Source: Candidatus Saccharimonadota bacterium (lineage in GTDB: Bacteria > Patescibacteriota > Saccharimonadia > Saccharimonadales > Saccharimonadaceae). Taken from it: a stretch of DNA of 64,000 nt. This document shows, one piece after another, positions 24,550 through 63,166 of this stretch. Numbering within the stretch: the stretch's first letter is position 1; every line of letters begins with the position of its first letter. Location: assembly GCA_017459705.1 (NCBI GenBank), contig JAFUCJ010000005.1, forward strand, positions 7,436 to 71,435, written 5' to 3'. Below the pieces are notes generated by a model. That model ran no database searches. It saw nothing but the letters and a program-made list of their open reading frames with translations, and was not told the DNA's origin. The translations under genes and the position numbers were made by a program.

Positions 24550-25260
24550 CTACACCCCCTCATTCCTCCGCGCCAAGTCGTTCAAATCATTATGCACCGC
24601 CGCCTTCCCTGCATCCGCCCCACTCTGCGCCAGCACCATCTTTACGGTCAGTAGTACTACTTTTATATCCTGCCTCAGCGAATAATTCCTCACATATTCC
24701 AGATCATAATCAATTTTCTGAAAAATCGTTAGCCCATTCCGCCCCTTCGCCTGCGCCAGCCCGGTAATCCCCGGTAGTACCTTCACGCGTCCGCGCTCCC
24801 GCTCGTTCATCCTCTCATAATACTCTGGTATCCACGGCCGCGGCCCGATAAACGCCATCTGCCCGAGCGCCACATTGATCAGCTGCGGCAGCTCATCAAT
24901 CGACGTCCGCCGTAGCACCCCGCCTACACGCGTGTATTTATCCGCACACGAATTATCTCGTATATCATTGTCTGCCGTCATGCTCCGGAACTTCATAATT
25001 TCAAACTCGCGCCCATTCTTTCCAGTCCGTTTTTGTCTGAAAAACACCGGCCCCGGGCTATCAATCTTGATAATTGCTGCAACTACCAAAAACAATGGTG
25101 ACAGCAAAATCAAGAACACGCTCGCTAGCGCAAAATCCAATCCCCGCTTGAACGCGCCATATATGGCGACCCTGATTGAATGTAGTCTTTCGTACCACAA
25201 GCCGTACGAAAGTGTTAATGACCCCTGATACGAGGAGTCTGCCTCGATTTTCTTTGGCAT
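24550..25260 (-). CDS. Undecaprenyl-phosphate sugar phosphotransferase (bacterial sugar transferase, WbaP/EpsL-like)
   Basis: 236 aa. One TM segment then PGPVFFRQKRTGKNGREFEIMKFRSM...RPWIPEY...GITGLAQ, typical of the priming transferase family. Confidence 0.9.
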   Translation of the reverse strand: MPKKIEADSSYQGSLTLSYGLWYERLHSIRVAIYGAFKRGLDFALASVFLILLSPLFLVVAAIIKIDSPGPVFFRQKRTGKNGREFEIMKFRSMTADNDIRDNSCADKYTRVGGVLRRTSIDELPQLINVALGQMAFIGPRPWIPEYYERMNERERGRVKVLPGITGLAQAKGRNGLTIFQKIDYDLEYVRNYSLRQDIKVVLLTVKMVLAQSGADAGKAAVHNDLNDLARRNEGV

Positions 25261-25337: not shown

Positions 25338-25427
25338 ATCATCCCTCCGCCGTCAGCCATCCCCCCGCCGTCATCCCCCGCCGTCAACTCTCATCCCCCG
25401 CCATCAACTCCCACCGCCCGCCACCCC
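25338..25427. repeat. Imperfect tandem C-rich repeats (CATCCCCCGCCGTCA-like; G-rich on the minus strand)
   Basis: 4-5 degenerate ~16-18-nt units in the spacer upstream of the sugar transferase. The minus strand carries many GGG-GGGGGG runs. Confidence 0.7.
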
Positions 25428-25505: not shown

Positions 25506-26483
25506 ATGAACAATACGCAAATCTATAAAAAGACTATTAAGTTCTCTCTCTGGCGTTTGCTGTGGGACTTCCTCGCCATAGTGGCGTTCGTTGGTTTCTC
25601 GGCTGCCGGTTTCGTCGTGGCCAATCAATCTTCCGGTAATGGGCTTATCGGCCTAGCCATTGGCGCCGTGCTCGGCGGTATTTCAGCCTATCTGATTCTC
25701 CACTTCCTAGCCTACACCTATACTGCCGGTCAGATCGCCATGATGACCGAGGGTGTCACCACTGGCAAACTCCCAGACAACCCAGTCGCCGCTGGTCGCA
25801 AAATCGTCAAGGAACGCTTTGCTACCGTCGCCGCCTACTATGCTGTTACTGGCATTATCAAGGGTATCTTCTCTCAAATCGGCCAAGGCATCACTGCTGT
25901 CGGCAAGGCTGTTGGTGGCGATACTGGTGGTGCTGTCGGTGGCACAATTTCTAGCGCTATCCAGACCGTCGTCGCTTATCTCTGCGATTGCTGTCTTGGC
26001 TGGGTCTTTTATCGCAAGGACGAGAAGGCTACTCGCGCCACTCTCGAAGGTGCCGTCATCTTCTTCAAACATGGCAAAACTCTCGCCAAGAACCTCGGCC
26101 GCGTATTCGGTATGGGTGCCCTCTCGCTTCTTATCATCGGAGGTATCTTTGCGGGCATTACTTATCTCATATTGCAAGCCATGCCTGATGTCATGGGTAG
26201 CCTGAGCGCCGAAGTTGCCGAAGCTATCGCCCGCAACGGCAATAGTGTCCCCGAGCTCGTCTCGAATCCTACTACGTTCACCGTCATCTGCTCTCTGATT
26301 AGCGGCGTCATCATCTGGTCGACGATTCACTCAACCTTTGTTCGTCCGTTCATCCTCGTCGGCGTTCTTCGCAATTTCATGAAGTCCGGTATCGAAAATA
26401 TTCCAAAAGAATCCGAATTCGCCGAACTTGACAAGAAATCCGCCAAGTTCAAGAAACTCCATTCCGAAGTCGCCGCCGAATAA
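25506..26483 (+). CDS. Multi-pass membrane protein, function unknown
   Basis: 325 aa with several Gly/Ala-rich TM segments. RBS AAAGGG. No motif recognised. Confidence 0.6.
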   Translation: MNNTQIYKKTIKFSLWRLLWDFLAIVAFVGFSAAGFVVANQSSGNGLIGLAIGAVLGGISAYLILHFLAYTYTAGQIAMMTEGVTTGKLPDNPVAAGRKIVKERFATVAAYYAVTGIIKGIFSQIGQGITAVGKAVGGDTGGAVGGTISSAIQTVVAYLCDCCLGWVFYRKDEKATRATLEGAVIFFKHGKTLAKNLGRVFGMGALSLLIIGGIFAGITYLILQAMPDVMGSLSAEVAEAIARNGNSVPELVSNPTTFTVICSLISGVIIWSTIHSTFVRPFILVGVLRNFMKSGIENIPKESEFAELDKKSAKFKKLHSEVAAE

Positions 26484-28975: not shown

Positions 28976-29008
28976 GCAAATTTGAAGCAAATTTGAAGCA
29001 AATTTGAA
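28976..29008 (+). repeat. Three tandem 11-bp repeats GCAAATTTGAA overlapping the -35 of the downstream promoter
   Basis: Exact copies at 28976-28986, 28987-28997 and 28998-29008. The last supplies TTGAAT (29004-29009). Confidence 0.85.
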
Positions 29009-29032
29009 TAAAACATTCTTTTGTGCTACAAT
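29004..29032 (+). promoter_or_regulatory. Promoter TTGAAT-17-TACAAT (TGC-extended), 7 nt before the ATG at 29040
   Basis: -35 at 29004-29009, 17-nt spacer, TGCTACAAT with hexamer 29027-29032. No SD, so a leaderless start is likely. Confidence 0.55.
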
Positions 29033-29039
29033 ATCATGT

Positions 29040-30545
29040 ATGGAAGATGGACTTTCGAATCAAAAAATAGCACAAATCATTTTTAACTTCTCTAAAATGG
29101 ATAGCGAGCTAGAACACGTTGAGTTTAAAGTAAATCAGGCCGACTCAGAAATGATCGCAAAGAATATCTCTGCCATTACAAACTCAATGACCCGTCGCAA
29201 TTCTCCAAGAGGCTATATGGTTTGGGGGATCGATAATGCCAGCCATGAATTTGTTGGGACAAGCTTTAAGCCATATTCGGCGAAAGTTAGAAATAAAACC
29301 AAAGATAAGGAAAGTAATGAAGAGCTACTGGTGTGGTTATCTAAATATGTTAAGCCGTCTCCGAAGTTAGATGTTAGAGAGCTCGAAATAAACGGGAAGA
29401 GGGTCGTTGTTTTTATAATTACGTCAAATCCGTTGGAGCTCTCAAAGTTTCGAGGCAACGCTTTTATCCGCATCGGCGCTAATACTAGGCCACTTAATGA
29501 ATATCCATCCATCGAAAAAGAAGTCTGGTGCGAAATCCTCTCCAGGGAATTCGAGACAATTTCAGCAAAATCAAATTTATCAAAGGATGAAGTCGTTTCA
29601 CTGCTTGATTTTGATACTTTTTATACCATGCGACAAAATAGAGTGCACGTAGAACGTAGTCTTTTATTTACGGAGGCAATAAAATGTGGCATGATTAGGG
29701 ATAACCAAGATACGACCTACGATATAACCAATCTTGGTGCACTGTTATACGCCAAGAAATTAGATGACTTCTCGCAACTTTCTTCTAAAACTATGCGAAT
29801 TGTCCTATATCGAGGAAACTCGAAGCTCAACTTGATAAACGAAGAACGAAGCATAGGTGGGTATGTTGTTGAATTTAATCGTATTCATAACTATATTATG
29901 AACAAAGTTATTTCCGAGGATGTAATTGGTGAAGATGGGATACGGAGAGAAAAATATCTGTACCCGACGCTCACTGTACGCGAGTTACTCGCCAATACAA
30001 TCGTCCATCAGGACCTCTCCACAAACGTCATGCATCCCATGATAGAAATTTATTCAGATCGGATAGAATTCATCAATCCTGGCGCACCGCTAGTCCCAGA
30101 AGACAGATTTTTGGATTACCCGCCTCAGACCAGAAACCAAAGAATGGCCGAGGAATTTTATAGGGTAGGACTTTGTGAAATACAGGGATCCGGCTGGGAT
30201 AAGGTTGCTATCGAAGCAAGCGAGTTGAGCTTCCCCGCACCAAAGCCAGAAGTTACTCAGGATACGACCAGAATAATCCTGATGCAAGAAAAAACGCTCG
30301 CTAATATGACGAACGAAGAGCGTATGTGGTCACTTTATACGTTCGCATGCTTGCTGTGGGTCAAAAAGCAATTTCTTACGAACACCCTTGTAAGACAGCT
30401 TTTTCATATTCCAGACAATAATCTCTCTATGGCTTCTACTCTATTATCGCAAGCCGTAAAATCTGGACTGATTGTCGTTTTTGACGAACAGGCTGGCACG
30501 CGTAGCCGTAAATACATGCCGAAATACGTAAACGATGCATTCTAG
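29040..30545 (+). CDS. AlbA_2 (Schlafen-like) DNA-binding domain + HATPase_c_4-type ATPase-like domain protein, putative regulator
   Basis: N-terminus ELEHVEFKVNQ... (AlbA_2-like). The central TVRELLANTIVHQDL...IEFINPG pattern matches the family often annotated as a putative transcriptional regulator or RecG-like ATP-binding protein. Start set to MEDGLSNQ. Confidence 0.7.
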   Translation: MEDGLSNQKIAQIIFNFSKMDSELEHVEFKVNQADSEMIAKNISAITNSMTRRNSPRGYMVWGIDNASHEFVGTSFKPYSAKVRNKTKDKESNEELLVWLSKYVKPSPKLDVRELEINGKRVVVFIITSNPLELSKFRGNAFIRIGANTRPLNEYPSIEKEVWCEILSREFETISAKSNLSKDEVVSLLDFDTFYTMRQNRVHVERSLLFTEAIKCGMIRDNQDTTYDITNLGALLYAKKLDDFSQLSSKTMRIVLYRGNSKLNLINEERSIGGYVVEFNRIHNYIMNKVISEDVIGEDGIRREKYLYPTLTVRELLANTIVHQDLSTNVMHPMIEIYSDRIEFINPGAPLVPEDRFLDYPPQTRNQRMAEEFYRVGLCEIQGSGWDKVAIEASELSFPAPKPEVTQDTTRIILMQEKTLANMTNEERMWSLYTFACLLWVKKQFLTNTLVRQLFHIPDNNLSMASTLLSQAVKSGLIVVFDEQAGTRSRKYMPKYVNDAF

Positions 30546-30553
30546 CATTTTGC

Positions 30554-30689
30554 AATTTGCTTTGTGGTTGCTTCAAAAACATAAACGGAATTGGGAATTA
30601 ACAGAGGTAATTTGCTTTGTGGTTGCTTCAAAAACATAAACGGAATTGGGAATTAACAGAGGTAATTTGCTTTGTGGTTGCTTCAAAAC
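30554..30689 (+). repeat. 55-bp tandem repeat, 2.5 copies
   Basis: The unit AATTTGCTTTGTGGTTGCTTCAAAAACATAAACGGAATTGGGAATTAACAGAGGT occurs at 30554-30608 and 30609-30663, with a partial copy at 30664-30689. Each unit contains TTGCTTCAAA, the reverse complement of the upstream TTTGAAGCAA motif. Confidence 0.9.
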
Positions 30690-30759: not shown

Positions 30760-32649
30760 CTACCTACCACCCAAAATCCATTGAATCACTTGCCTTTTAA
30801 TTTCAAAATATTCATCTTTTTCAAATTGCATGTTGGCGATGCAGTATCTCTTATTAGTAATATGCGAGCAAAACATACATTCATGGAGCGAATTCGCATC
30901 TTGGATAAAAAACGAATTTGAGATTTTTCCAGAGCAAATCACATTGTATGAATTTGTACAATTCGCCGAGTCATCCACCCTGAGACAATAAGCACAGGCC
31001 CCGGACCGTTGTGATGCTACTGTATATTCCGAAGCGTGGCAAGAATCACAAAATGCGATGTTTTTGCAACGATTACAATTTGCACTGCGCCAGACTTTTT
31101 CACTTTCGTATACCGTGTCACTCTGTGCCACGTCCACCGAATTGAAATTTCTCTCAGTCGTCGTAAAGTTTGTTTCCCGCCAAATTTCAATTATGTCGTC
31201 TATGGATTCAACTTTTCGTTTCGGCAACATCCACGTTTCACGCTCGCTTTCATTTCTTTGCGTAATATACCTCGTAGAGTTCATGCTTTCCGCCCACGTT
31301 TCTTCACCGCTAATTGAATCATAAACCATCACTGCCGGCATCAACATTCCGCATCGCGACAACCTCGCCACTACATGACGATCCGGCAAAATTGCCAGCA
31401 ATCGCGCCTTTTCTCTCTGCGACGTATTGCCATCCTGAAATGTCGTCAACTTCGCGTCTGCAAATTCCGTCTGTTCCCCGCTACACAATTCTATATCCAA
31501 ATAATCCACCAGATGCTCCGCGTCATCATAATTCAGCCGAAAACAGAAATAATTCGCCACATTGGCATAGATTGCAGTTTTTAGTTCGTTGGAAATCTGT
31601 GTGTAATATTGTCCAGCTAGCACTACGGAAATATTATATTTTCGCGCTTCCGCCAAAAATCTCGTTAGCACTGGGTTTTCAACCACCGCAACTTCATCTA
31701 CTACGAGTATAATGTGCTCACTCAGTCTGCGTTGCATGCCCAGTGCAAAAAGTTGGTTCATAATGAGGCCAGCCAGGGTTTTTACCGCGCGCTCGCCATG
31801 CTTTGCGATATTTAGTGACACCAGAGTTACTTTATTCGTTACAATTTCGTATTCTAGCCGCCGACTATTTTGTCGGTAAATCGCCGGTGTCAGTTGTAGT
31901 TCATCTATCAGCGTCACCATGAGTGCAAAAGTCGCATCATGATATCGGGTTCTCAGTTCGTTGTAGTCCTGCCCAAAAAATTCTTGCAAACTTTCTGGCA
32001 GATATTTCTCCACACTCGCGAGCGTGATATTTTTGTATTGCGTATCAGTGAGCATTCTTCTGAGATTCTGTAAACTCAGCTCGCCTTTTTCTATCAGCGC
32101 ATATAAACAAGCCCGCGCCAAACGCTCCGCCATAGGATTCCAGCTCGTCGCAAGGGATTTCAATAGTCCTAGCATCATCTCTACGCTGTTTACGATATTT
32201 TCGCCATTCACAACGAACAGATCAAGTCCCCGGTCGCTATTTGTGTAGTCGAAAACTTTTACCTTGTCGCACCCGCCAATCTCATCTCTGAGCGCATCGT
32301 GCGGGTCTATCACGAGAAAATGATATTTGTCACCATAGTTTTCCATTGTTTCGCAGATAAAACTCGCTAAAAATTTGCTTTTCCCCGCCCCACTTGCTCC
32401 AAATACCGCTGTATGTTTATAAAAATCAATATCTTTTAATACAAGATAATGTTTTTCGTTGAAATACGGAAATTGCCTTAATTCCAAAATTGCTCCATTA
32501 GTTTCCGACGAGAACAACGACAAAGTTTTGGCCACGTTCAGATACTTCGGCGGCTTGGCCAGCACAAAAGCCTTCCGAAAGTCCAGATTTAGTATATCCG
32601 GCGTCGCGCCATGCAATCTCAGAATCTTTACGGAGCCGTTTTTCTCCAT
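30760..32649 (-). CDS. P-loop ATPase of the HerA/FtsK/VirD4-like (DUF87-type) class with a Cys-rich C-terminal domain
   Basis: Walker A FGASGAGKSKF and Walker B HIILVVDEVAV. The last ~125 aa carry many CxxC-like pairs and end ...KRYCIANMQFEKDEYFEIK. Confidence 0.7.
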   Translation of the reverse strand: MEKNGSVKILRLHGATPDILNLDFRKAFVLAKPPKYLNVAKTLSLFSSETNGAILELRQFPYFNEKHYLVLKDIDFYKHTAVFGASGAGKSKFLASFICETMENYGDKYHFLVIDPHDALRDEIGGCDKVKVFDYTNSDRGLDLFVVNGENIVNSVEMMLGLLKSLATSWNPMAERLARACLYALIEKGELSLQNLRRMLTDTQYKNITLASVEKYLPESLQEFFGQDYNELRTRYHDATFALMVTLIDELQLTPAIYRQNSRRLEYEIVTNKVTLVSLNIAKHGERAVKTLAGLIMNQLFALGMQRRLSEHIILVVDEVAVVENPVLTRFLAEARKYNISVVLAGQYYTQISNELKTAIYANVANYFCFRLNYDDAEHLVDYLDIELCSGEQTEFADAKLTTFQDGNTSQREKARLLAILPDRHVVARLSRCGMLMPAVMVYDSISGEETWAESMNSTRYITQRNESERETWMLPKRKVESIDDIIEIWRETNFTTTERNFNSVDVAQSDTVYESEKVWRSANCNRCKNIAFCDSCHASEYTVASQRSGACAYCLRVDDSANCTNSYNVICSGKISNSFFIQDANSLHECMFCSHITNKRYCIANMQFEKDEYFEIKRQVIQWILGGR

Positions 32650-34315: not shown

Positions 34316-37246
34316 ATGAAATTTGCATCGAGCTACGAACCGAGTCAGTTTGAACCAGATATTTACGCCGCCTGGGAGACGAGCGGTGCCTTCAAACCCA
34401 CCACACCCACAGTTCCCATTGATAACAATGACGACGGCATCGACGATCGATTTGAGACTGATGTGATACTAGCCGATTCGAGCGCATTTGCGACAACGGG
34501 AGCAAGCGACGAAGCGAGCCCCGTAACGACGGGCGCGAGCGAGGAGGCGCGAGAATCGGCTAGTATCACATCCAGGGACACCTATTCGATCGTTATGCCA
34601 CCACCCAATGCCAACGGCAATCTCCATATCGGCCACGGCCTTACTGTCGCCCTAGAAGATTCCCTTACTCGTTTCTATCGCTTGAATGGTAAATCCTCTT
34701 GGTACATTCCCGGCGCCGACCATGCCGGCTTTGAAACTTGGGTCGTCTACGAACGCACCCTAGAAAAAGACGGTCATACCCGTTTTGAATTCGACCGCGA
34801 CACTCTCTATGCGCGCGTCTGGGATTTCGTTGCCATGCAGCGTGGCAACATGGAGTTGCAACTCCGTGCTCTCGGCGCTTCTTGCTCCTGGGGTGACCTC
34901 ACCTTTACCCTGGACGAAAACGTCATCGATCGCGTTTACACCACTTTCGAAAAAATGTGGAACGACGGCCTTATCTATCGCGGCGAAAAACTCGTTAATT
35001 TCTGCCCCAAGCACCAAACCGCCTTCGCCGACATCGAAGTCGAGCATAAAGACGAAAAAGGCACCCTCTGGGAGATTGAGTATCCACTGATGAAAAATGA
35101 CGATGCGGACATTTTGCGAGCATTTGCAACAACGGAAGCAAACAACGAAGCTAGCCCCGTAACGACGGGTGTGAGCGAGGAGGCGAGCGAAATGCCTGTA
35201 TCGTCATGTATTATCGTAAGCACCACTCGCCCCGAAACCCTTTTCGGTGACATGGCTATCGCCGTCAACCCAGCCGATGACCGCTACAAACCTCTGATTG
35301 GTAAGCATGTCCACCTACCTCTCACCGACAGGACGATTCCTATTATCGCCGACGAACACGCCGACCCCGAGTATGGCACCGGCGCCGTCAAGATTACCCC
35401 TGCCCACGATTTCGATGATTTTGAAGTCGGCACCAGGCACGATTTAGATCGCCTCCAAGTCATAAGTGAGGACGGCCATATGATCAACGTTCCTGATAAA
35501 TACATAAGCCTCACCCCCACCGAATGTCGCAAACAAGTTCTAAAAGACCTCGAATCCGCAGGTCTGCTCCGCGGCGAACAAAAAATCACTCACAGCGTCG
35601 CTCATTGCTACAAGTGCGGCACCGTTCTCGAGCCAACCCTGAAAGAACAGTGGTTTGTCGACGTTAAGCGCCTGGCGAGTGATGCTATTAGGCACCTAGA
35701 ACAGGGCGAAATCACTTTCTACCCCGAAAACAAACAACGTGTCCTTATCAATTATCTCGAAAACTTAAAAGATTGGAACATTTCTCGTCAAATCCCTTGG
35801 GGTATTGCGATTCCTATGTTCAGAAAGGTTACAGAGGAAGCCACCGACGAGCCCGAATGGATTTTTGACCGCCGCACCAATCTCAAAACCATCGAGAAAT
35901 CCGGCGTTACCTACGTCCGCGACGAAGACACCTTTGATACTTGGTTCTCCTCTTCCCATTGGCCAATCGTCTGCACCGACTGGTCTGAGGACAATCCCAC
36001 TCCTTACTACCCACTCAATGTCATGGAAACCGGCGCCGACATCCTTTTTGCTTGGGTCGCCCGGATGATTATGATGGGGCTTTACGTTACCGGCGAAGTT
36101 CCATTCAAGGAAGTCTATCTCCATGGCCTTGTCCTCGACGCCCACGGCCAGAAAATGAGCAAATCCAAAGGTAACGTCATCAATCCGATGGACATGGTGG
36201 CAAGATATGGCTCAGATGCTTTCCGCCTAGGTATTCTCCGCGGTCGCTCGGCTGGCATGAACCAAGCATTTAGCGAAAACTCCGTTGTCTCTGGCCGCAA
36301 CCTCTGTAACAAACTCTGGAACATCTCTCGTCTCATTCAATCTGTGGTTGACGAAGACGAGGAAACAGAGCCACGAGGCGCATTTGCGACAACGGGAGCA
36401 AACGACGAAGCAAGCCCCGTAACGACGGGCGCGAGCGAGGAGGCGACGAGGGGCTCCGTTTCCTCATCTTATACGACCAACAACCAGGGCGAAGACTGGA
36501 TTTGCCGCGAGATTAACCAGTGTCTAGCAGACGTCGCGTCCGGCATGCACTCCTACCGCTTCTCTGAGGCCGTCGAGACCTTATACCAGACCATCTGGGA
36601 CAAATACGCCGATTGGTTCCTCGAATCCCAAAAAATCTACCGTAACGTCCCGCTTCTCAAAACCACGTTGGAGCACCTTCTGATTGCTCTCCATCCCTTT
36701 GCTCCCTTTGTCACCGAGGCTATCTGGCAAAACCTCAGTTGGACTTCCGGTATGATAATTAACGCCAAATGGCCCGGAGAGCTCATATACGACCCGATAA
36801 GCGCAACCGAATTCGAAAGCCTTATCTCAGTCGTCTCCGAAGTCAGGACCACCTTGCAGGCCCTACCAGGCACCAATAACGCCAAAAAATACGCACTACT
36901 ATTCGATAACGATAGTCTTGTTGAGGATAACCTGCTCCTTATCAAGGCTCTTACTAAGGTCCCCGCTGTCACCGCTTTAAACGGCGCCCCACGCGGCCTC
37001 CGCCTTGCCCTAGCCAACCACGAGCTTTACCTCGACGTCCCCGAGAAGGTCGTCAAGGACTACAAGGACGCCTTGACCGACAAAATCCTAGCCGTTGGTC
37101 GCGAGCTGGACGGTCTGAATGCCCGTATGCTAAATCCAAATTATGTCGATAAGGCCCCTGCCCACCTCGTCAAGGAAACCCAGGACGCCATCAAGGAAAA
37201 ATCCGACCTCATCTCCCGCCTGAAAACCCAACTTGAACTCATCTAG
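34316..37246 (+). CDS. valS: Valine--tRNA ligase, with three in-frame repeat insertions
   Basis: Class I motifs PPPNANGNLHIGH and KMSKSKGN, TTRPETLFGDMAIAVNP, and a C-terminal coiled coil. 976 aa. Confidence 0.95.
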   Translation: MKFASSYEPSQFEPDIYAAWETSGAFKPTTPTVPIDNNDDGIDDRFETDVILADSSAFATTGASDEASPVTTGASEEARESASITSRDTYSIVMPPPNANGNLHIGHGLTVALEDSLTRFYRLNGKSSWYIPGADHAGFETWVVYERTLEKDGHTRFEFDRDTLYARVWDFVAMQRGNMELQLRALGASCSWGDLTFTLDENVIDRVYTTFEKMWNDGLIYRGEKLVNFCPKHQTAFADIEVEHKDEKGTLWEIEYPLMKNDDADILRAFATTEANNEASPVTTGVSEEASEMPVSSCIIVSTTRPETLFGDMAIAVNPADDRYKPLIGKHVHLPLTDRTIPIIADEHADPEYGTGAVKITPAHDFDDFEVGTRHDLDRLQVISEDGHMINVPDKYISLTPTECRKQVLKDLESAGLLRGEQKITHSVAHCYKCGTVLEPTLKEQWFVDVKRLASDAIRHLEQGEITFYPENKQRVLINYLENLKDWNISRQIPWGIAIPMFRKVTEEATDEPEWIFDRRTNLKTIEKSGVTYVRDEDTFDTWFSSSHWPIVCTDWSEDNPTPYYPLNVMETGADILFAWVARMIMMGLYVTGEVPFKEVYLHGLVLDAHGQKMSKSKGNVINPMDMVARYGSDAFRLGILRGRSAGMNQAFSENSVVSGRNLCNKLWNISRLIQSVVDEDEETEPRGAFATTGANDEASPVTTGASEEATRGSVSSSYTTNNQGEDWICREINQCLADVASGMHSYRFSEAVETLYQTIWDKYADWFLESQKIYRNVPLLKTTLEHLLIALHPFAPFVTEAIWQNLSWTSGMIINAKWPGELIYDPISATEFESLISVVSEVRTTLQALPGTNNAKKYALLFDNDSLVEDNLLLIKALTKVPAVTALNGAPRGLRLALANHELYLDVPEKVVKDYKDALTDKILAVGRELDGLNARMLNPNYVDKAPAHLVKETQDAIKEKSDLISRLKTQLELI
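34461..34571 (+). mobile_element. Family-A in-frame hairpin element, copy 1 (111 nt)
   Basis: Arm ATGTGATACTAGCCGATTC...GAATCGGCTAGTATCACAT is perfectly complementary over 19 nt. The 66-nt core (34484-34549) encodes AFATTGASDEASPVTTGASEEA. Confidence 0.75.
35097..35207 (+). mobile_element. Family-A in-frame hairpin element, copy 2 (111 nt)
   Basis: Arms ATGACGATGCGGACATTT / AAATGCCTGTATCGTCAT are imperfectly complementary. The core (35120-35185) encodes AFATTEANNEASPVTTGVSEEA. Confidence 0.7.
36354..36470 (+). mobile_element. Family-A in-frame hairpin element, copy 3 (117 nt)
   Basis: Arms AAGACGAGGAAACAGAGCC / GGCTCCGTTTCCTCATCTT. The core (36380-36445) encodes AFATTGANDEASPVTTGASEEA. Confidence 0.7.
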
Positions 37247-37692: not shown

Positions 37693-37889
37693 TGAACTAA
37701 CAATCGCCCACCTCACACAGCGATTGGGAGATCCCGCAAGGATCTGTTTGATGAACCGCCAGCAGACAACGCTGTTGGCAACCGAAATCAAGTCGACCCG
37801 GACAGCAAAACGCTTCACGGAAAATATGGCTATGTACTAAAAAACATAAGCAGTCAAATTTTTGCATGTCGGGCGGGGCAGGAAAACAG

Positions 37890-38969
37890 ATGAAAATACC
37901 AATTACGCAGACGAAAAAATGGCAAAAATTACAGCAGGATTTAGGCAATAAAACTTTTTTTGAGAAAAAATCAGACTTCGAGTATTTAGCCATCGAGAAG
38001 CACACCCCAGTAGGGAATTACCTTTTTCTTCCTTATGGACCAGTGGCGAAAAGTGACCAAGGATTTCTAGATGCGATTAATTCGCTGATTGATTTAGCGA
38101 GGAATCATCGCTGCATTTTTATCCGCCTCGAACCGCAAGACGCCGCTTATCGCGCCCTCCTTCCTATGAACAGCAAAAAAGTCAAAGATGTCGAACCGGC
38201 AGAGACCTGGGTACTAGATTTGCCAGATATTTCCACCGCGGACCCGCTGGATGATCAATCCATAAAAGCCCTCCTCCCGTCACGCCTACTTCGCTATTAC
38301 AAGAACATGGCAAAGCAGGGAATCACCATCGAAAAATCCCACGACCCAGCCGATATTCACTACCTTGTCGAGCTCCAATCTGCCCTCGCCGCCGAGAAAG
38401 GCATCACGACTTTCACCGCGGACTACTTAAAAACCGAGCTCGAGCAAGACTTCGCAACCCTCTACCTATTGTTGCAGCATATGTCGCCCGCAATGCTTGC
38501 ATCGACGGGTGACGCCGCTTGGGGGACCCCCACGCCAGCGCGCGTGGGGGAAAATGCGGCGACAGGACCCGTCGAGTGTAGCGACGACAGGACCCGTCAG
38601 GATGCTCCCTCGGCGGCAGGACCCGTCGAGACTGACGTTGATCATGTCCTTGCCGCCGGCCTCGTTTTTGACGACGCCACCACCCGTTACAATCTTCAAG
38701 GCGCCCAATCCGAAACCGGCAGGAAACTGCACGCCACCGGCATCCTTACCATCGAGCTCATCCTCGACGCCGTACAGAACGGTCAAAAAACCTTCGATTT
38801 CTGGGGTATTGCTCCCGAGGGGGCGCCAGCTACGCACCCCTGGGCTGGCTTCACCGCCTTTAAGAAAACTTTCGCTGGCCGCGAGGTCAAATACGCCGGC
38901 ACTTACGATTTACCCACCGACCCTTTGAGATATCGCCTTTATCAGTTCCTTCGCAGATTCCGCCATTAG
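37890..38969 (+). CDS. FemAB family peptidoglycan aminoacyltransferase (FemX-like), with a GC-rich in-frame insertion
   Basis: Start set to MKIPITQTKKWQKLQQ...YLFLPYGP (typical FemX-like N-terminus). The C-terminus FDFWGIAP...FKKTFAG is family-like. Confidence 0.8.
   Translation: MKIPITQTKKWQKLQQDLGNKTFFEKKSDFEYLAIEKHTPVGNYLFLPYGPVAKSDQGFLDAINSLIDLARNHRCIFIRLEPQDAAYRALLPMNSKKVKDVEPAETWVLDLPDISTADPLDDQSIKALLPSRLLRYYKNMAKQGITIEKSHDPADIHYLVELQSALAAEKGITTFTADYLKTELEQDFATLYLLLQHMSPAMLASTGDAAWGTPTPARVGENAATGPVECSDDRTRQDAPSAAGPVETDVDHVLAAGLVFDDATTRYNLQGAQSETGRKLHATGILTIELILDAVQNGQKTFDFWGIAPEGAPATHPWAGFTAFKKTFAGREVKYAGTYDLPTDPLRYRLYQFLRRFRH
38503..38631 (+). mobile_element. Family-B in-frame GC-rich hairpin element (one full unit plus two extra right-arm copies)
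   Basis: TCGACGGGTGACGCCGC...GGGGGACCCCC...GCGGCGACAGGACCCGTCG (38503-38575), followed by GACGACAGGACCCGTCA and GGCGGCAGGACCCGTCG. Confidence 0.65.
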
Positions 38970-55293: not shown

Positions 55294-55941
55294 CTAATCC
55301 TCTAGCCGCTCTCGGGGAGGCTGAGAGACATAGTCTCTGATGTTATTGATGTTTGATAGTTTATAATTGTCGCGATTAAGCTCACGGCTGAGGTGTTTTA
55401 ATCTGACAGATAAACAATTATTTGTTTCTGTCATTGGTGTAGCTAGGACAGTTACGCAAGAATCTGGGCTAAGTCGAAGGGCGGCTTTGATTGCTTCGGC
55501 GTAATCTCCGTCACAAGAAAGAATCACAACGTTTATTGGCTCCTTGGCTCTTGCGGCGCACTCTAGCAAATCAGAAGTTAGATAAACGTCGACATTCGAT
55601 TTTAGTTTTATGCTTTCTGAAAGCACTTTTACTTTATTCGGGAATTTACAGTTTTTGCACTCGAAAGTTTCGTATCTTGGTGGCTCAACATACCCTTTTC
55701 GGGTGAGTGAACAAATCTTGTATCCTATCTTTTCGCTTAAGAAACGGAAGTGCTTCAGTTTCTTTTTGTCACTAGAAGATACACCCTCATAGTAACGAAC
55801 CTCTTGAACATTTGGGTATTTTTCCTTTAGATAGCTGTAAAGCTTGATAAAATTGAGGTTGAAGCCACAGCTCCAAAGACAGGCATGACGAATATTACTG
55901 ACGTCAATGTAAATATAGGTCTTGGCTTCTAATAAACTCAT
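55294..55941 (-). CDS. NYN (LabA/DUF88-like) domain protein with an inserted CxxC zinc-ribbon-like segment
   Basis: IYIDVSNIRH..., NVDVYLTSDLL, VVILSCDGDYAEAI (NYN/PIN-like acidic residues), plus FECKNCKFPNK. Confidence 0.75.
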   Translation of the reverse strand: MSLLEAKTYIYIDVSNIRHACLWSCGFNLNFIKLYSYLKEKYPNVQEVRYYEGVSSSDKKKLKHFRFLSEKIGYKICSLTRKGYVEPPRYETFECKNCKFPNKVKVLSESIKLKSNVDVYLTSDLLECAARAKEPINVVILSCDGDYAEAIKAALRLSPDSCVTVLATPMTETNNCLSVRLKHLSRELNRDNYKLSNINNIRDYVSQPPRERLED

Positions 55942-56030: not shown

Positions 56031-56105
56031 TGGCTGGACCGGCAGGATTCGAACCTGCGAATGCTGGGACCAAAACCCAGTGCCTTACCGCTTGGCGACG
56101 GTCCA
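56031..56105 (-). tRNA. tRNA-Gln (anticodon UUG), CCA encoded
   Basis: The reverse complement reads TGGACCGTCGCCAAGCGGTAAGGCACTGGGTTTTGGTCCCAGCATTCGCAGGTTCGAATCCTGCCGGTCCAGCCA. U1-A72 pair, anticodon loop TTTTGGT. Confidence 0.9.
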
Positions 56106-56604: not shown

Positions 56605-59600
56605 ATGAAATACAGAGCCGGAGAGCGCCTTAGGGCCATAGAGTACGAGAAGTCACTCACTGAGTGGTGGAAAAAGAACAAAACTTTTGAGAAATCTATC
56701 GAGAATCGTCCGATTGATAAATCTTACGTCTTCTATGATGGCCCCCCGTTCATTACCGGTATGCCGCACCACGGCACACTTCTCAGCTCTATTGTAAAAG
56801 ACGCCGTCCCACGTTACTGGACCATGCAAGGCTGCCGCGTTGAGCGTCGTTGGGGCTGGGATTGCCACGGTCTCCCCGCCGAGAACTTCGTCGAGAAGCA
56901 GCTCGGCATTACTGACCGTCGCGACATTGGCACCAAATGGTCCCTCGAAGATTACATCATCAAGGCTCGCGAATCCATGGTCGCGAACTCCGAACTCTGG
57001 CGCGCCACCATCGACCGCGTCGGCCGTTGGGTGGATTTCGACAACTGCTACCGCACCATGAACAAGGATTTTATGGAGTCCGTCTGGTGGGCCTTCAAGA
57101 AATTATACGAAGCAGGGAAGATCTACGAGGGTCGCAAAGTCCTGATGTACGACACGAAATTTGCCACCCCGGTCAGCAAAGCCGAAGTCACTATGGACAA
57201 CGATGCCTACCAAACCGTCACCGACCCATCCGCCTACGTCAAATTCAAACGCCAGGATGCCGACGAGTATTTCTTGGCCTGGACCACTACCCCCTGGACT
57301 CTCATGGCCAACCGCGCTTTGGCTGTGAGTCCCGACATGGACTACGTCAAAGTCAAAGTTGGCGACGAGATCTACATTGTGGCAAAATCCCGCCTCGAAG
57401 CAGTTTTTGGCGACGCGGAGTATACCTTATTATCCGGGCGGGTGACGGCTGCGGAGGGGGACCCCCGCCGAGCCTGCGAGGTGGGGGAGGACAGCAGCCG
57501 GCAGGACCCGCCCTATATATTAAAGGGTAGCGACCTCGCCGGCCTCAAATACAAATCTATCGACGGCACTATTTGCCAGGTTTTCACCGCTGATTTTGTA
57601 GGCAATGAAGAGGGTACCGGCATCGTCCATATCGCCCCCGCCTACGGCGAAGACGACTACGATCTGTATCTGAAACATGCCGCAACGGACGACAAAACCA
57701 TGTCCGGGCAGGTGACGGCTGCGGAGGGGGAGGGCGTCACTCGGCAGGACCCGCCCCGTATTTCGTTTGTCGACACTCTCGACGAGAACGGCTATTATCT
57801 ACCAGAGTACGCCGCCAAGCTCCATGCCCTCGGCGTCCGCGACACCGACGAACACGGCATCCAGATTTGGGCCGCCAACAAGTTTATCGCGAAATGCCTT
57901 GAAGAACAGAGAATCATTTACAAAATCGAATACATCCAGCACGAATATCCATTTAATCCACGTTCCAAGGAACGCATTATGTACCGCGCTTTCCCAAGCT
58001 GGTTCTTTGACATAGAGGGGCAAAAACCTCTCATGCTAGCCGAGAACGAAAACATCAACTGGTTCCCAGCCTACTTGAAGCACGGCCGCTTCGCGAAGAA
58101 CATCGAAGCCGCCCCTGATTGGAACCTCTCCCGCGACCGTTTCTGGGCTACCGCCATGCCGGTCTGGAAAGGCGAAAAAACCGGCGCTATCAAAGTATTT
58201 GGCTCCTACGCAGAGCTTAAAGAATACTCCGGCAAAGAGCTAGATGACTACCACCGCCCATGGGTAGACGAGATAGAATTCGACGCTTATGTTGAGAATG
58301 GAAAGGTTATCTCAAAAAATGCCTTATCTGCAACTTTTGAGACCGTGTCCCGAAATCCTCACGAGGATTTCGAAGTGAGCGAGCCCCGTGACGACGGGCG
58401 CGAGCGAACGGGGTCGAAAAAGTTACAGGAAGGCATTTCCGAGTTAGACCATTTCACTCGTATCGAAAAAGTCCTCGACTGTTGGTTCGAGTCCGGCTCC
58501 ATGCCTTTCGCTCAGCTTCATTACCCATTTGAAAACAAGGACAAATTCGAGCGAAATTACCCCGCCGACTTCATCGTCGAATACGTCGGCCAAGTCCGCG
58601 CTTGGTTCTATTATGTTCATACGGTCAACACAGCCCTCGCCGAAATCGGCGCTTTTGGTGAAAAAGCAAAGCGCGGCCACAAGAACGCCTACAAAAACGT
58701 CATTACTACTGGTACCCTCGCAGGGAACGACGGCCGCAAAATGAGCAAATCTCTTGGCAACTACACCGACCCGAATGTCCTGATGGACACCTACTCGGCC
58801 GACGCCCTTCGCTTCCTCCTCCTCAGCAGCCCAGTCCTCTCTGGCGAAGATTTCGCCCTGCTCGACAAGGATGTCTCTGATGTCAACCGCAAGCTCGCTA
58901 TGCTCTGGAATGTTTACGACTTCTTCGTGACTTACGCCGAGATTGAGGGCTGGGATTCTGAGAATTCATGGCGTCCAGCTACCAAAGGTTTAGATTCACT
59001 CAAAAACCCGCTCGATGTCTGGATTATCTCGCGCTTGCATCAGACCAAGGCCAAAATCATTAACGGCATGTCCGAATACAATATCCCCAAAGCGCTAGAA
59101 GACGTCCTGCCGTTTATAGATGATCTCAGCAACTGGTTTGTTCGCCGCTCGCGCCGCCGCTTCAGCAAAAACGACGATCAAGAAGACAAAAACGAGGCTT
59201 TCTGGACTCTTTATACCGTTCTTGTAAAAACTGCTCAAGTTCTCGCTCCGTTTACCCCATTTCTTTCGGAGGAACTTTACCAAAAAATGACCGGCTCTAG
59301 CGAGTCAGTCCACCTTCTAGATTATCCTCAGGCAACCGAAGTAGATAGCGAGGTTCTGGAGAACATGACTCGCACTCGCACCATCATTACCGATGCACTC
59401 GCTCTCCGTATGCACAAGTCCGACACCGAGGCCCAGATTAAAGTCCGTCAACCCCTAAGTAGGCTCACCTACCTAGGCGACAAACTCGACGATTTCTACG
59501 AGCGGATCATTGCCGACGAAGTCAACGTGAAACAGGTCGAAAACGGCGATTCGCTCACACTCGACAAAACTATCACCCCCGAACTAGCCAAAGAGGGCTA

Positions 59601-59826
59601 CGCTCGCGATCTTGTTCGCGCAATTCAATCTGCTCGCAAGAATGCCAAACTTATGATGGACGACCGCATTAAGCTGTCCCTCTCGGTTGCTCTCCCCGAA
59701 GGCTACGAAGATTACGTCCTCACCGAATCCCAGGCCGACTCGTTCGAGCTTGGCGCCAACTACGCCCACGACGAAATCGCCAAAGTAAACGGCGAAAACC
59801 TCACTATCTCACTGGAAAAATCGTAA
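56605..59826 (+). CDS. ileS: Isoleucine--tRNA ligase, with three in-frame GC-rich insertions
   Basis: Class I motifs PPFITGMPHHGT and KMSKSLGN. 1073 aa. TGATATAAT (hexamer 56593-98) lies 6 nt before the ATG, with no SD. Confidence 0.95.
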   Translation: MKYRAGERLRAIEYEKSLTEWWKKNKTFEKSIENRPIDKSYVFYDGPPFITGMPHHGTLLSSIVKDAVPRYWTMQGCRVERRWGWDCHGLPAENFVEKQLGITDRRDIGTKWSLEDYIIKARESMVANSELWRATIDRVGRWVDFDNCYRTMNKDFMESVWWAFKKLYEAGKIYEGRKVLMYDTKFATPVSKAEVTMDNDAYQTVTDPSAYVKFKRQDADEYFLAWTTTPWTLMANRALAVSPDMDYVKVKVGDEIYIVAKSRLEAVFGDAEYTLLSGRVTAAEGDPRRACEVGEDSSRQDPPYILKGSDLAGLKYKSIDGTICQVFTADFVGNEEGTGIVHIAPAYGEDDYDLYLKHAATDDKTMSGQVTAAEGEGVTRQDPPRISFVDTLDENGYYLPEYAAKLHALGVRDTDEHGIQIWAANKFIAKCLEEQRIIYKIEYIQHEYPFNPRSKERIMYRAFPSWFFDIEGQKPLMLAENENINWFPAYLKHGRFAKNIEAAPDWNLSRDRFWATAMPVWKGEKTGAIKVFGSYAELKEYSGKELDDYHRPWVDEIEFDAYVENGKVISKNALSATFETVSRNPHEDFEVSEPRDDGRERTGSKKLQEGISELDHFTRIEKVLDCWFESGSMPFAQLHYPFENKDKFERNYPADFIVEYVGQVRAWFYYVHTVNTALAEIGAFGEKAKRGHKNAYKNVITTGTLAGNDGRKMSKSLGNYTDPNVLMDTYSADALRFLLLSSPVLSGEDFALLDKDVSDVNRKLAMLWNVYDFFVTYAEIEGWDSENSWRPATKGLDSLKNPLDVWIISRLHQTKAKIINGMSEYNIPKALEDVLPFIDDLSNWFVRRSRRRFSKNDDQEDKNEAFWTLYTVLVKTAQVLAPFTPFLSEELYQKMTGSSESVHLLDYPQATEVDSEVLENMTRTRTIITDALALRMHKSDTEAQIKVRQPLSRLTYLGDKLDDFYERIIADEVNVKQVENGDSLTLDKTITPELAKEGYARDLVRAIQSARKNAKLMMDDRIKLSLSVALPEGYEDYVLTESQADSFELGANYAHDEIAKVNGENLTISLEKS
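57433..57513 (+). mobile_element. Family-B in-frame hairpin element, long form (81 nt)
   Basis: TCCGGGCGGGTGACGGCTGC...GGGGGACCCCC...GCAGCCGGCAGGACCCGCCC with nested stems GGGCGGGT/ACCCGCCC and CGGCTGC/GCAGCCG. Encodes SGRVTAAEGDPRRACEVGEDSSRQDPP. Confidence 0.7.
57703..57756 (+). mobile_element. Family-B in-frame element, short form (54 nt)
   Basis: TCCGGGCAGGTGACGGCTGCGGAGGGGGAGGGCGTCACTCGGCAGGACCCGCCC. Encodes SGQVTAAEGEGVTRQDPP. Confidence 0.65.
58351..58419 (+). mobile_element. Family-A-related in-frame element (partial core) read in a different frame
   Basis: 10-bp hairpin CGAAATCCTC-AC-GAGGATTTCG, then CGAAGTGAGCGAGCCCCGTGACGACGGGCGCGAGCGA (about 90% identical to the right half of the valS core), then ACGGGGTCGAAA pairing back. 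Encodes ...VSEPRDDGRERTG. Confidence 0.6.
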
Positions 59827-60741: not shown

Positions 60742-61071
60742 ATGGAAAAACAAATACAGGCTGCGGACTATCAGCAGCTCGCGGAGTTTGTAGACGCACT
60801 GATTGCTCGCAAATTCCCGGAAAACACAGAGAATCACGCGGAGCTTCGTGAGGAGTCTATCGCGAAGTTGAGCGATCACATTAATCAGCGAATTTTTGAA
60901 CAGCTAAGCGAGGAACAAATCGTTCGCCTAGGCGACATCGCTGATGCTCACTCCGACGACCCCGCGGCATTTTCCAAGTTTTTCATGGATGCCGGCATTG
61001 ACCTAAGCCGCACCGTCAAGGATGCCATGATTGAGTTTGGTAACCAATTCCTGGGAGGCGACAATGAATAA
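60742..61071 (+). CDS. Small acidic helical hypothetical protein (109 aa)
   Basis: Promoter TTGACT-17-TAAGAT (60691-60719) and RBS GAAAGG. Overlaps the next gene by 8 nt (60742-61071 vs 61064-63166). Confidence 0.6.
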   Translation: MEKQIQAADYQQLAEFVDALIARKFPENTENHAELREESIAKLSDHINQRIFEQLSEEQIVRLGDIADAHSDDPAAFSKFFMDAGIDLSRTVKDAMIEFGNQFLGGDNE

Positions 61072-63166
61072 TTTTGAACGCCCCCACACCAACAACGATG
61101 ACCTATATACTTCTTACGAGGATGCTGTCGGCTATACCTTCGACGCTCCTGACACGCCCAGTACGCCAAATATAATTGACGAGTTAGACAATACCGCCGA
61201 GCTATCCGAGGAGGCCCGCGCGACGTACGGCGATCGTGGTGAGAAAACTCTCAAATCCACCATCGAGCGCCTGCCGAATAAGATAGGGGAAGCTATCAAT
61301 AAAATCAAAAAATCACCAGCTTTCCAGCGCGCACTCGCACTCGTCGCTACCGGCGTTGCCGTAGTTGCTCTTACTGGTTGCAACGGCGACAAGCAGGAAC
61401 CCGAGGCCTCTACCACTCCTACCGAGACCACTCAGGCCGTCGAACCAGAGGCTCCAAAATATAATCCGGAGAACCGCACCAATAAAACCGAATCCCTTAC
61501 TGGCTCCGAGTTTCTCGACGAACTCATCGACGGCAGTTTTGAGCAGTACTCCAACCCGGGCGGCCATGATCGTAGCTATGCGAAGGATCCATCCTTGGCG
61601 GCCAAGGGCATGCCAGACATCTTTTCCGCCGGGTCCGTTGCTAACGTCGGCGAAACCCTTACCATGATGATTAAAAACGGCCTTATCGCCGACCCATATA
61701 ACCCTACTCCTGAGGAATGGGGCGAAGCGTATAAATATATCGCGTTTAGCGAGAAAGAACCAGCCGCTTTTGTCGCGATTGCTACCGGTTTGCCAGGGTT
61801 CAAGGACCTCTCTTACCGTGACGCCTCGGCCAAGATTGCTGCGATGACCGACGACGAGAAAAAAGATTTCCAGGACATGCTGCATCGCATTTTCGACCGC
61901 GCCACTTTTGAAAAAGGCACCGTCAGCGGCAATGTGAAGAACTATTATATCGTCGACCAGGGCAATGGCGACAAGATTGGTGAATCCAGCGATACTTATC
62001 TCTCTGAGGAAACCAGCACTTTGATTATGCATGTCTCTGACAAGGATCTCTACGACGACGATACCTATATGGTCACCAGCGACGGCCGTGTCGTGCTTGC
62101 CTCGGAATATGCTAATCCGACCGGCACCACTACGACGATAAGCGCACTCTTGCGTTGCTTCAACAACGACGTGGTCGTCACCTACACGAATAACACCACT
62201 GGCGAATCTGACAAAGTCACCATCAACGACAACACTCCTCCATCCGATGAAATCCCGACCAGCAACATCACTGATGATGAGGGTAATTCCGGCGATCATC
62301 AAGACGACAATGGGGGTCAAGGCTATGGCGGTGGTGGCCCTGCCAGTTCAGAAGATAATGGTTACGGTGGTGGCGGCCCTGCTAATCCAGACCCAACCCC
62401 AGACAACGACGGCTATGGTGGCGGTGGCCCCGCCAATCCGGATCCGACCCCAGAGCCGACTCCGGAACCCACCCCTGAGCCAACTCCGGAGCCTACTCCC
62501 ATTCCAACTCCAACCCCAACGCCGACACCCACACCTACGCCTACACCTACCCCCACGCCAGCACCGACCAATCAGCCCAAGAACGAACGAGCCGAAAGAG
62601 AGAACGCTGGTGGCGCAGGCGTTACCGAGCAGCCTATCAACAACAACGTAACACCAGTCACACCTGTTTCGGCGGACCGCGATAACGCCGATAGGACTCG
62701 TCGCGCCGAGGAAGATCGTCGCCAACAGGAAGAAGCCGATGCCCGTCGTCGCGCCGAAGAGCAGGCTGCGGCCGAGCGCAGAGCCGCCGAAGAAGCTGCC
62801 GCCCGTCGTCGTGCCGAGGAACAGGCCGAGGCCGAGCGTCAGGCTGCCGCTCGCCGCGCCGCCGAACAAGCCGCCTCCGAAGCCGAACGCCAACGTCTCG
62901 AAGAGCAAGAACGCCAGCGTCAGGCCGCCGAAGCCGAAGCTCGTCGTCTAGCTGATGAAGCCGCCGCTCGTGCCGAAGCTGAAGCACGTGCTCGCCAAGA
63001 AGAAGCCGCTGCTGCTGAGCGGCAACGCGCTGAGGAGCAGGCCGCCCGCGAACGCGCCCAGGCCGAGGCCGATGCCGCCGCCGCGGCGGCTGCTGCCGAA
63101 GCTGCGAGCCACGTCGATGACACCGCCGGCGAACGTGCCAATATATTTAATAGTGGCGACTTCTAG
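61064..63166 (+). CDS. Probable surface lipoprotein with low-complexity regions (GYGGGGPA repeats, PT/PE repeats, Ala/Glu/Arg-rich coiled coil)
   Basis: Start set to MNNFERPH. Lipobox-like ...VVALTGCNG. (PEPT)n/(PT)n tract and a long AEE(Q/R)AAA region. Confidence 0.7.

Follow-up and report, generated by a model that had tools for sequence, protein, structure and literature searches.

A GC-rich, structure-defined hairpin repeat read in frame within ileS of a Saccharibacterium and present also in Actinomycetota and other phyla

Why should the isoleucyl-tRNA synthetase (IleRS) gene ileS of a Candidatus Saccharimonadota bacterium carry two related, GC-rich stretches with the potential to form hairpins inside its open reading frame (ORF)? 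The gene lies in a 64,000-nucleotide (nt) stretch of metagenomic DNA (contig JAFUCJ010000005.1, positions 7,436 to 71,435), which was analyzed as a whole and is called the window below. In our view the two stretches, termed B1 and B2, very probably represent copies, lying in frame, of a dispersed hairpin repeat that is or once was mobile. This repeat, family B, is a structure-defined hairpin element of Saccharibacteria that resembles the Rickettsia palindromic elements (RPEs) and is also found in Actinomycetota and other phyla.

Family-B copies in ileS and a FemAB-family gene

The host gene, the two copies and the parts of B1 are located as follows, all on the + strand.

56605-59826, +: host gene ileS, encoding an IleRS of 1073 aa (Pfam tRNA-synt_1, Anticodon_1, DUF5915)
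57433-57513, +: B1, intact family-B element of 81 nt, read as SGRVTAAEGDPRRACEVGEDSSRQDPP
57436-57443 with 57506-57513, +: stem P1 of B1
57446-57452 with 57494-57500, +: stem P2 of B1
57462-57469 with 57480-57487, +: stem P3 of B1
57444-57445, +: 5′ loop of B1, GA
57453-57461, +: internal loop of B1, GGAGGGGGA
57501-57505, +: 3′ loop of B1, GCAGG
57703-57756, +: B2, internally deleted family-B copy of 54 nt, read as SGQVTAAEGEGVTRQDPP

An initial annotation made from the DNA letters had described two segments with common ends in ileS, and the sequences were confirmed at these positions. The window contains exactly two occurrences of the 29-nt 5′ end common to B1 and B2, TCCGGGCRGGTGACGGCTGCGGAGGGGGA, where none is expected (100 shuffles). 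Their 15-nt 3′ end, CGGCAGGACCCGCCC, is likewise present exactly two times, against about 0.09 occurrences expected by chance, and has a third near-match at 38614. Both segments were also correctly described as stop-free and a multiple of three in length, with 81 and 54 nt lying in frame within the ORF. A covariance model of the family matches B1 at 57432-57517 (70 bits, E = 7e-14) and B2 at 57702-57760 (36.8 bits, E = 2.7e-6), and in the latter match 5 nt replace 33 model positions.

The nested stems that had been proposed for the long form were upheld in number but not in every detail. Three nested stems are formed, whereas the suggested apical GGGGGACCCCC is not, as the partner of CCCCCGCC is GGTGGGGG, which lies downstream, and the 5′ GGGGGA of B1 belongs to an internal loop rather than to an apical stem. 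Folding energies, computed with RNA and DNA parameters against shuffled controls, favor B1 to a degree that is modest when taken alone: its RNA fold of -48.5 kcal/mol has z = -2.3, with 5 of 200 shuffles equally good, and its DNA fold of -25.9 kcal/mol has z = -2.1. B2, on the other hand, folds no better than its shuffles (z = +0.5 for RNA, +0.8 for DNA); this copy retains both ends, the stretch between two GGGGGA repeats that would form the apical P3 hairpin is gone, and mutations have changed P2 in its 3′ arm. The best structural support is the covariation over 126 copies described below rather than the folding energy of B1.

Within IleRS, the inserts correspond to residues 277-303 (B1), 367-384 (B2) and 568-617 (a third insert), and the closest relatives of the protein are isoleucine--tRNA ligases of Candidatus Saccharibacteria with 66-86% identity. 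B1 and B2 had been placed at loops that are normally short, and this is borne out by the fact that at both sites the alignment with the solved structure 8c8u of IleRS is interrupted and the predicted local distance difference test (pLDDT) score is below 50. In the phmmer alignment, query residues 356-386 stand opposite chain residues 329-333 and query residues 568-617 opposite a single residue, while the B1 site is opposite a shorter loop. The AlphaFold model has a moderate mean pLDDT of 62 and was used only for the well-predicted editing domain; inside this domain, which scores 80-90, residues 278-301 and 361-383 fall below 50 with no secondary structure, and residues 576-608 likewise fall below 50 with none.

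The near-match to the 3′ end of B1 and B2 led to a third, divergent copy in a gene for a FemAB-family protein.

37866-38969, +: gene of a FemAB-family peptidoglycan bridge-formation protein, 367 aa
38499-38578, +: third, divergent family-B copy (covariance model 75.6 bits, E = 4e-15)
38582-38630, +: tandem pair of additional 3′-arm copies (CGACGACAGGACCCGTCAGG, CGGCGGCAGGACCCGTCGAG), located 3′ of the third copy

This copy has the three-stem architecture of B1, each stem having changed in a compensatory way: GGGCGGGT/ACCCGCCC becomes CGACGGGT/ACCCGTCG, CGGCTGC/GCAGCCG becomes CGCCGC/GCGGCG, and CCCCCGCC/GGTGGGGG becomes CCCCCACGC/GCGTGGGGG. It folds much better than its shuffles (z = -4.3 for RNA, -4.9 for DNA) and uses the other open frame, GGT GAC as against GTG ACG, to give the peptide STGDAAWGTPTPARVGENAATGPVE. 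The extra 3′ arms add 26 aa that are not present in the 90%-identical orthologue P0121, and FemAB orthologues have a hypervariable loop at this site, with element-derived peptides in several frames. Over the 64 kb the covariance model finds exactly three copies, all on the + strand (75.6, 70 and 36.8 bits).

Spread, structure and reading frames of the family

Further copies were sought with one genome per species and the pattern GGGTGACG N4-10 GGGGGACCCC N15-45 CAGGACCC, by which 26 bases are invariant by construction while all other positions are free to vary. This genome-wide search, which the initial annotation had called for, gave at least 128 copies in at least 116 loci and at least 62 assemblies of species-representative genomes; the family counts that follow are among the matches listed, and the assemblies were assigned to taxa via accession prefix. 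Saccharibacteria or Nanosyncoccus account for at least 48 assemblies, mostly metagenome-assembled genomes (MAGs) from ruminant or human gut. The other carriers are at least nine Solirubrobacterales and at least two other Actinomycetota assemblies, at least one member of the Vicinamibacteria (three copies, in contigs that measure 0.34 and 1.7 Mb), at least one of the Nitrospirales and at least one MAG labelled Gammaproteobacteria. With the covariance model 132 copies were recognized, spread over 100 loci. About 20 of these copies do not obey the strict pattern but still retain CGGGTGRCG and GGCAGGACCCG.

The consensus can be written ACAT-SGRC-GGGT-GA-[P2]-nnGGGGGA-[P3 hairpin]-Arrrn-[P2′]-GCAGG-ACCC-GYCS-AGAR, for an element of ~80-95 nt, in which the conserved flanks (ACAT-SGRC...GYCS-AGAR) reach 8 nt outside the core on each side and then end. 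For structure statistics we used 126 aligned copies, with 500 shuffles and alignments with slid partners as controls. In all 126 copies the minimum-energy fold is a single unbranched hairpin with three stems, and 94.1% of the paired alignment cells can pair, compared with 78.1% in shuffles (none of 500 as high) and 38-50% with slid partners. Covariation scores 0.396, whereas the slid controls do not exceed 0.089, and single column pairs illustrate how freely the bases are exchanged: columns 8/110 hold CG 50, GC 47, AU 8 and UA 7 times, columns 10/108 GC 66 and AU 53 times, and columns 22/93 GC 54, CG 24, UA 19 and AU 8 times. Over the 126 copies, then, the asymmetric loops are conserved and the stems between them covary strongly.

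Comparison with the 4227 covariance models of Rfam 15 at gathering score returned only tRNAs for the window and six loci, and relaxing the threshold to E = 10 added nothing but spurious miRNA and snoRNA matches. The strict pattern had no match in viral contigs, where a looser one gave two matches that are without the hairpin architecture and represent chance; the plasmid collection held no family-B match. In the literature on repeats of Saccharibacteria and Patescibacteria, searched also for the motif GGCAGGACCC, no description of family B was found. Some intergenic copies in other Saccharibacteria (L049:6171-6275, L095:7114-7220, L063, L060 and L074:3236-3325) are followed directly by a T-run (e.g., ...ACCCGTCTTTTTTGTG) in an arrangement that looks like an intrinsic terminator, and in some of these the outer stem is lengthened considerably in a manner peculiar to the copy (cataaaggac / gtcctttatg).

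Roughly 74 of the 128 copies (~60%) are within long open frames, 42 in sense and 32 in antisense orientation. The sense copies are divided between frame 1 (13) and frame 2 (29), with none in the frame that reads GGG-TGA-CG; the remaining copies are situated between genes or at their edges, in many cases right behind the stop codon of the upstream gene. The IleRS orthologues offer a direct view of how the same DNA is read. Conservation of the segments as protein, which had been named as evidence that would speak against an inserted repeat, was checked here, and most orthologues proved to be without them, empty at both loops, while those in which the loops are filled, about 25, use different frames. 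Depending on the frame, filled loops read as GRVTAAEGDPRRA..VGEDSSRQDP or as TGDAAWGTPDGASATAGENAAAGPV, so that one DNA yields peptides as different as GRVTAAEGDP..RQDP and TGDAAWGTP..AAGPV. Peptides vary from copy to copy and the DNA core is retained. Because several frames and both orientations are used, the peptides differ and the DNA core is kept, family B is a nucleotide element and not a protein element.

The copies of Actinomycetota are placed in a comparable manner, as all 14 that were examined occur in disordered regions of housekeeping proteins, in frame or right where the reading frame starts. Eight of them, in both orientations, occupy linkers between the lipoyl domain and the peripheral subunit-binding domain (PSBD) or between the PSBD and the catalytic domain of 2-oxoacid dehydrogenase E2/OdhA; the loci concerned are drawn from L101, L115, L042, L028, L030, L014 and L053, and L014 has two family-B copies in one E2/OdhA gene. 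Others are found in the linker of DnaX tau, in the N-terminal regions of GrpE, of GMP synthase (GuaA; two orthologous loci, L023 and L104) and of ribosomal protein S9, and, in one further case, at the frame start of an NAD-GDH. In the MAG labelled Gammaproteobacteria (L056) the copy lies in LepA.

Strand, turnover and explanations

Of 110 Saccharibacteria copies, 93 have the top strand of the element on the strand whose local GC skew is negative (p = 7e-14). The bias is present in sense (32:6), antisense (22:2) and intergenic (39:9) copies alike, and it is also seen in 15 of 18 diverged copies and in all three copies of the window. Sense and antisense copies of Saccharibacteria stand at only 38:24, and this weak sense bias, together with a skew bias in all classes, indicates that the determinant is replication and not transcription. 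G.T pairs in the stems number 102 compared with 34 A.C pairs, and of the two strands the top one forms the stabler hairpin for 113 copies out of the 126 under RNA parameters and for 125 under DNA parameters. One particular DNA strand appears to be folded and selected. Since both orientations relative to transcription are used, a role in mRNA is disfavored. The window itself has negative GC skew on its + strand throughout (1-64000), whatever the orientation of the genes, a uniformity which argues that it contains no origin or terminus and that the skew is mainly not transcriptional.

How copies come and go can be seen from the DNA of ileS in the window and four close relatives (L098, L117, L118 and L119). 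At site 1, the window, L098, L117 and L118, whose flanks differ by 12-14%, carry B1 with 100% identity; L119 lacks it and has only CCAACGGGTGAATTG, probably what a deletion left of a frame-b copy like that of P0008. At site 2 neither L098 nor L119 has a copy, a 75-nt stretch including B2 being missing from L098; the window has B2 there, L117 holds a full copy of another subfamily (P2 CGCCGC/GCGGCG) in frame b and L118 a copy of a third subfamily (P2 CAGGCGC/GCGCCTG) in frame a. Other IleRS loops and the FemAB loop are likewise polymorphic among orthologues. Identical cores are also found at separate positions of one genome, 250-1100 nt apart, in L027, L081, L078 and L097, which shows that copying has been recent and local.

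Loss is equally visible. The proposal that the short form is a deletion derivative was substantiated: B2 is 27 nt shorter than B1, in frame, and lacks the P3 hairpin between GGGGGA direct repeats, and a similar deletion arose independently in L059:4546-4605 and L081:3166-3224. This deletion at GGGGGA repeats with its two independent parallels marks the short form as a slippage-type deletion derivative. Resident copies decay by in-frame internal deletion, and B2 is one product of this decay.

The explanation that we find best, and consider reasonably likely, is a non-autonomous hairpin element of the kind represented by RPEs, transposable elements of the miniature inverted-repeat type (MITEs) and repetitive extragenic palindromic (REP) sequences, which acts at the DNA level and is translated as a disordered loop. 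Multiplication would take place at the level of DNA, the top strand folding as single-stranded DNA (ssDNA) at or near the replication fork, where a putative trans-acting enzyme would recognize the element by its conserved foot, CGGGT/ACCCG, and by its asymmetric loops (GGGGGA, and GA facing GCAGG). We put forward this ssDNA and trans-acting-enzyme mechanism tentatively, as a conjecture somewhat short of even chances. In gene-dense genomes the survivors would be those landings that are in frame, stop-free and within permissive surface loops or linkers; the surviving copies would be transcribed and translated as disordered peptides rich in Gly, Ala, Pro, Asp and Glu, and their location in essential genes would protect them from sloppy deletion.

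Several points weigh against this explanation. An IS608/IS200-type TnpA probe, a weak test, found no match among 4086 ORFs in 0.95 Mb of loci, and a Pfam search of ten ORFs on either side of the 38.5-kb and 57.5-kb copies found no transposase domain. The loci contain no long "autonomous" version, the 5′ and 3′ motifs being nearly always paired within 110 nt, and no consistent direct repeat that could be a target-site duplication (TSD) was detected at any offset around 108 Saccharibacteria copies. The translation of the element as a disordered loop is something that we infer from frame conservation alone. The orientation bias may, by analogy with IS200/IS605, reflect strand-specific insertion into or excision from ssDNA at the fork, but it may also arise because hairpins that are stable on the lagging-strand template are lost faster, and both readings assume that GC skew has standard polarity in Saccharibacteria. 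Such loss of hairpins was reportedly described by Trinh and Sinden in 1991. Finally, the identity of B1 despite 12-14% flank divergence hints at a constraint that pure selfishness does not predict; as other orthologous pairs have diverged about like their flanks, with the 26 pattern-fixed bases discounted, we deduce no host-level function from it.

Concerning the surroundings of the copies, no transposase, reverse transcriptase or recombinase was found beside them in the loci checked, nor was an obvious transposase seen by eye among the ORFs between the inverted Vicinamibacteria copies (L037) or beside the L014 pair, where ORF calls are noisy at high GC. A few Solirubrobacterales copies have a possible 5-7 bp repeat at offset 18; in L101 and L115, apparent 7-bp direct repeats (CGTCTGC and CGTCAAC) occur ~18 nt outside the core.

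Selection for a benefit to the host is a rival that we judge improbable. The element would then be a structured nucleic acid serving as a protein binding site, a K-turn-like motif or a replication or chromosome signal, and in its favor can be counted the 26-nt core and loops kept in at least four phyla, the strong covariation of the stems, the B1 copies that are identical in four genomes amid diverged flanks, an orientation tied to the replication strand as in FtsK-orienting polar sequences (KOPS) or Chi-type signals, and the intergenic copies that run into T-runs like intrinsic terminators. However, the invariance of the 26 nt comes from the search pattern, close relatives are empty at the same sites, copies decay by deletion, orthologous pairs evolve about like their flanks once the fixed bases are allowed for, and no Rfam family matches. 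It is much harder to believe that the repeat is an intervening sequence kept out of the protein by intron-like removal or by ribosomal bypass of the kind known from the mitochondrial "byp" or T4 gene 60. A stable GC-rich hairpin in essential genes does resemble the yeast mitochondrial byp and GC-cluster elements, but all intragenic copies are stop-free in the frame of the host with the TGA frame unused, deletion derivatives stay in frame (27 nt between B1 and B2; 26 aa between the FemAB protein of the window and P0121), and antisense copies would give a different RNA. Excision in silico restored no split genes either: the 15 "restored" ORFs were fusions of neighboring genes, as in the case of an upstream gene C-terminus joined to a P-loop (GPTGSGKT) N-terminus.

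Ordinary lineage-specific loops or linkers, GC-rich by chance, under selection as protein and with an incidental hairpin, would agree with the location of the inserts and with their peptides, whose content of Gly, Ala, Pro, Asp and Glu is high as in natural linkers; we nevertheless find this scarcely credible, given that the same DNA is used in at least four combinations of frame and orientation to give unrelated peptides, that intergenic copies exist, that the nucleotide core and stem complementarity are conserved and the peptides are not, and that B1 and B2 share ends of 29 and 15 nt for which the chance expectation is near 0. A faulty metagenome assembly or binning, for instance through chimeric joining where GC-rich repeats occur, comes to mind for a window that is a metagenomic contig (ERZ27256825 k141_239711). 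We regard such an artefact as the least plausible account of all, for the same codons are hit in independent ENA, NCBI, Logan and JGI assemblies with contigs of up to 1.7 Mb, and the reading frames are intact.

If the non-autonomous element that we favor is the correct explanation, "selfish DNA inside proteins", known mainly from Rickettsia, would extend to Saccharibacteria and the candidate phyla radiation (CPR). Inserts of this type may explain much of the length variation of housekeeping proteins, as in the IleRS orthologues, where proteins of 66-86% identity range from 953 to 1280 aa, and in annotation they can be masked or modelled rather than taken for novel domains. More than 120 covarying copies provide an alignable, structure-defined marker with which strand choice, target choice and decay by slippage become testable. 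The core is found also in Actinomycetota, the phylum of the known hosts of Saccharibacteria, which makes it conceivable that the element has been exchanged between an epibiont and its host. A bolder and, to our mind, rather doubtful idea is that family B is the trace of a hitherto undescribed cross-phylum system, in which a dedicated enzyme would read a three-stem DNA hairpin with fixed asymmetric loops on one replication strand and would copy or paste it with a preference for coding DNA, or else a domesticated, strand-oriented chromosomal signal; if true, it would be a new class of structure-defined element common to Saccharibacteria and Actinomycetota.

Other repeats of the window and comparison with known elements

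The window contains further repeats and neighbors that we record here. Family A has three copies in a ValRS-like ORF and a partial copy in ileS; it has a branched two-hairpin fold with copy-specific outer stems (z = -4.7, -2.6, -1.2 and -0.8), and all four copies are on the + strand, as are those of family B. The partial copy lies in the third insert of ileS relative to 8c8u, and IleRS orthologues have at least six further insertion hotspots.

34316-37246: ValRS-like ORF with family-A copies at 34477-34555, 35113-35191 and 36373-36451 (+)
58306-58455: third insert of ileS, with the family-A fragment at 58378-58420 (+)
25339-25427: C-rich 20-nt tandem repeat TCATCCCCCGCCATCAACTC, 2.7 units, between ORFs 24550-25260 (-) and 25506-26483 (+)
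30554-30688: perfect 55-nt tandem repeat, 2.5 units, then a degenerate third unit, in the gap between ORFs 29004-30545 (+) and 30760-32649 (-)
55294-55941, -: NYN-domain gene, and 56031-56105, -: tRNA-Gln, both directly upstream of ileS
62432-62569: Pro/Thr-rich repeats of 12-24 nt, followed by a GC-rich stretch (62.7-63.1 kb), in ORF 61031-63166, which has no Pfam match

Among known elements, MITEs are non-autonomous and hairpin-forming, and at times they lie in ORFs or provide C-termini or stop codons (PMC5896051, PMC10969869). In Coxiella, QMITE1/2 are occasionally inserted in frame into ORFs (PMC5896051). Family B resembles Coxiella QMITE1/2, the enterobacterial repetitive intergenic consensus (ERIC), BOX and the MITEs of Anabaena in being a non-autonomous hairpin that is sometimes in frame. 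MITEs, however, carry the terminal inverted repeats (TIRs) of a parent insertion sequence and are flanked by TSDs, mostly between genes, and neither feature was found in the Saccharibacteria copies of family B. The whole of family B is a hairpin with P1 as its inverted repeat, and no longer element with the same ends was seen in the ~1 Mb inspected.

A likeness of another sort connects family B with REP/REPIN sequences and their REP-associated tyrosine transposases (RAYTs) and with the palindrome-associated transposable elements (PATEs) of IS200/IS605, all of which have imperfect hairpins with conserved unpaired bases, strand specificity and no TSD. With PATEs it shares an orientation bias and a fold on one strand, provided that the polarity of the skew is standard as assumed. 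The ssDNA and fork-linked behavior of REP/RAYT and IS200/IS605 is said to have been treated by Ton-Hoang et al. in 2010 and 2012. Yet REPs are extragenic, 20-40 nt long and marked by a 5′ GTAG, whereas family B is ~60% intragenic, ~85 nt long, has ACAT as its 5′ flank consensus and has three stems, and no Y1 transposase was detected in the weak probe test on the loci. IS200/IS605 elements differ further in that family B is a single hairpin and does not have separate left and right subterminal hairpins, has no conserved target beyond ACAT...AGAR, and showed no TnpA in the same weak test.

The attC sites of integrons are also defined by structure over sequence, have extrahelical bases that mark the active strand, act as folded ssDNA substrates and are oriented with replication. 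Family B departs from them in being without the RYYYAAC/GTTRRRY ends and in being dispersed and intragenic instead of arranged in cassette arrays by an integrase. In mitochondria, GC clusters, double-hairpin elements and byps are mobile GC-rich hairpins that invade AT-richer coding regions. All of these are organellar, and byps are out of frame and bypassed by the ribosome, in contrast to the intragenic copies of family B, which are always in frame.

The closest parallel remains that with RPEs, which Ogata et al. reportedly described in 2000 from Rickettsia with reduced genomes. RPEs are palindromic repeats of ~100-150 bp that lie in frame in many housekeeping genes (PMC10969869). Like them, family B is a dispersed palindromic repeat that is found in frame in unrelated genes and also between genes; RPEs are translated as extra surface segments and have no transposase and no clear TIR or TSD. 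RPEs are, on the other hand, AT-rich and confined to Rickettsia, whereas family B is ~85 nt long and GC-rich in a genome of 45-50% GC, with conserved asymmetric loops, massive covariation, a presence in several phyla and an orientation by GC skew. No kinship in sequence between the two is evident, although RPE sequences were not compared with it directly. By this analogy we regard family B as RPE-like in behavior without filing it as an RPE, from which it is set apart by the size and base composition described for those elements, and in its strand-specific fold and its link to replication it has features in common with IS200/IS605, REP-RAYT and attC.

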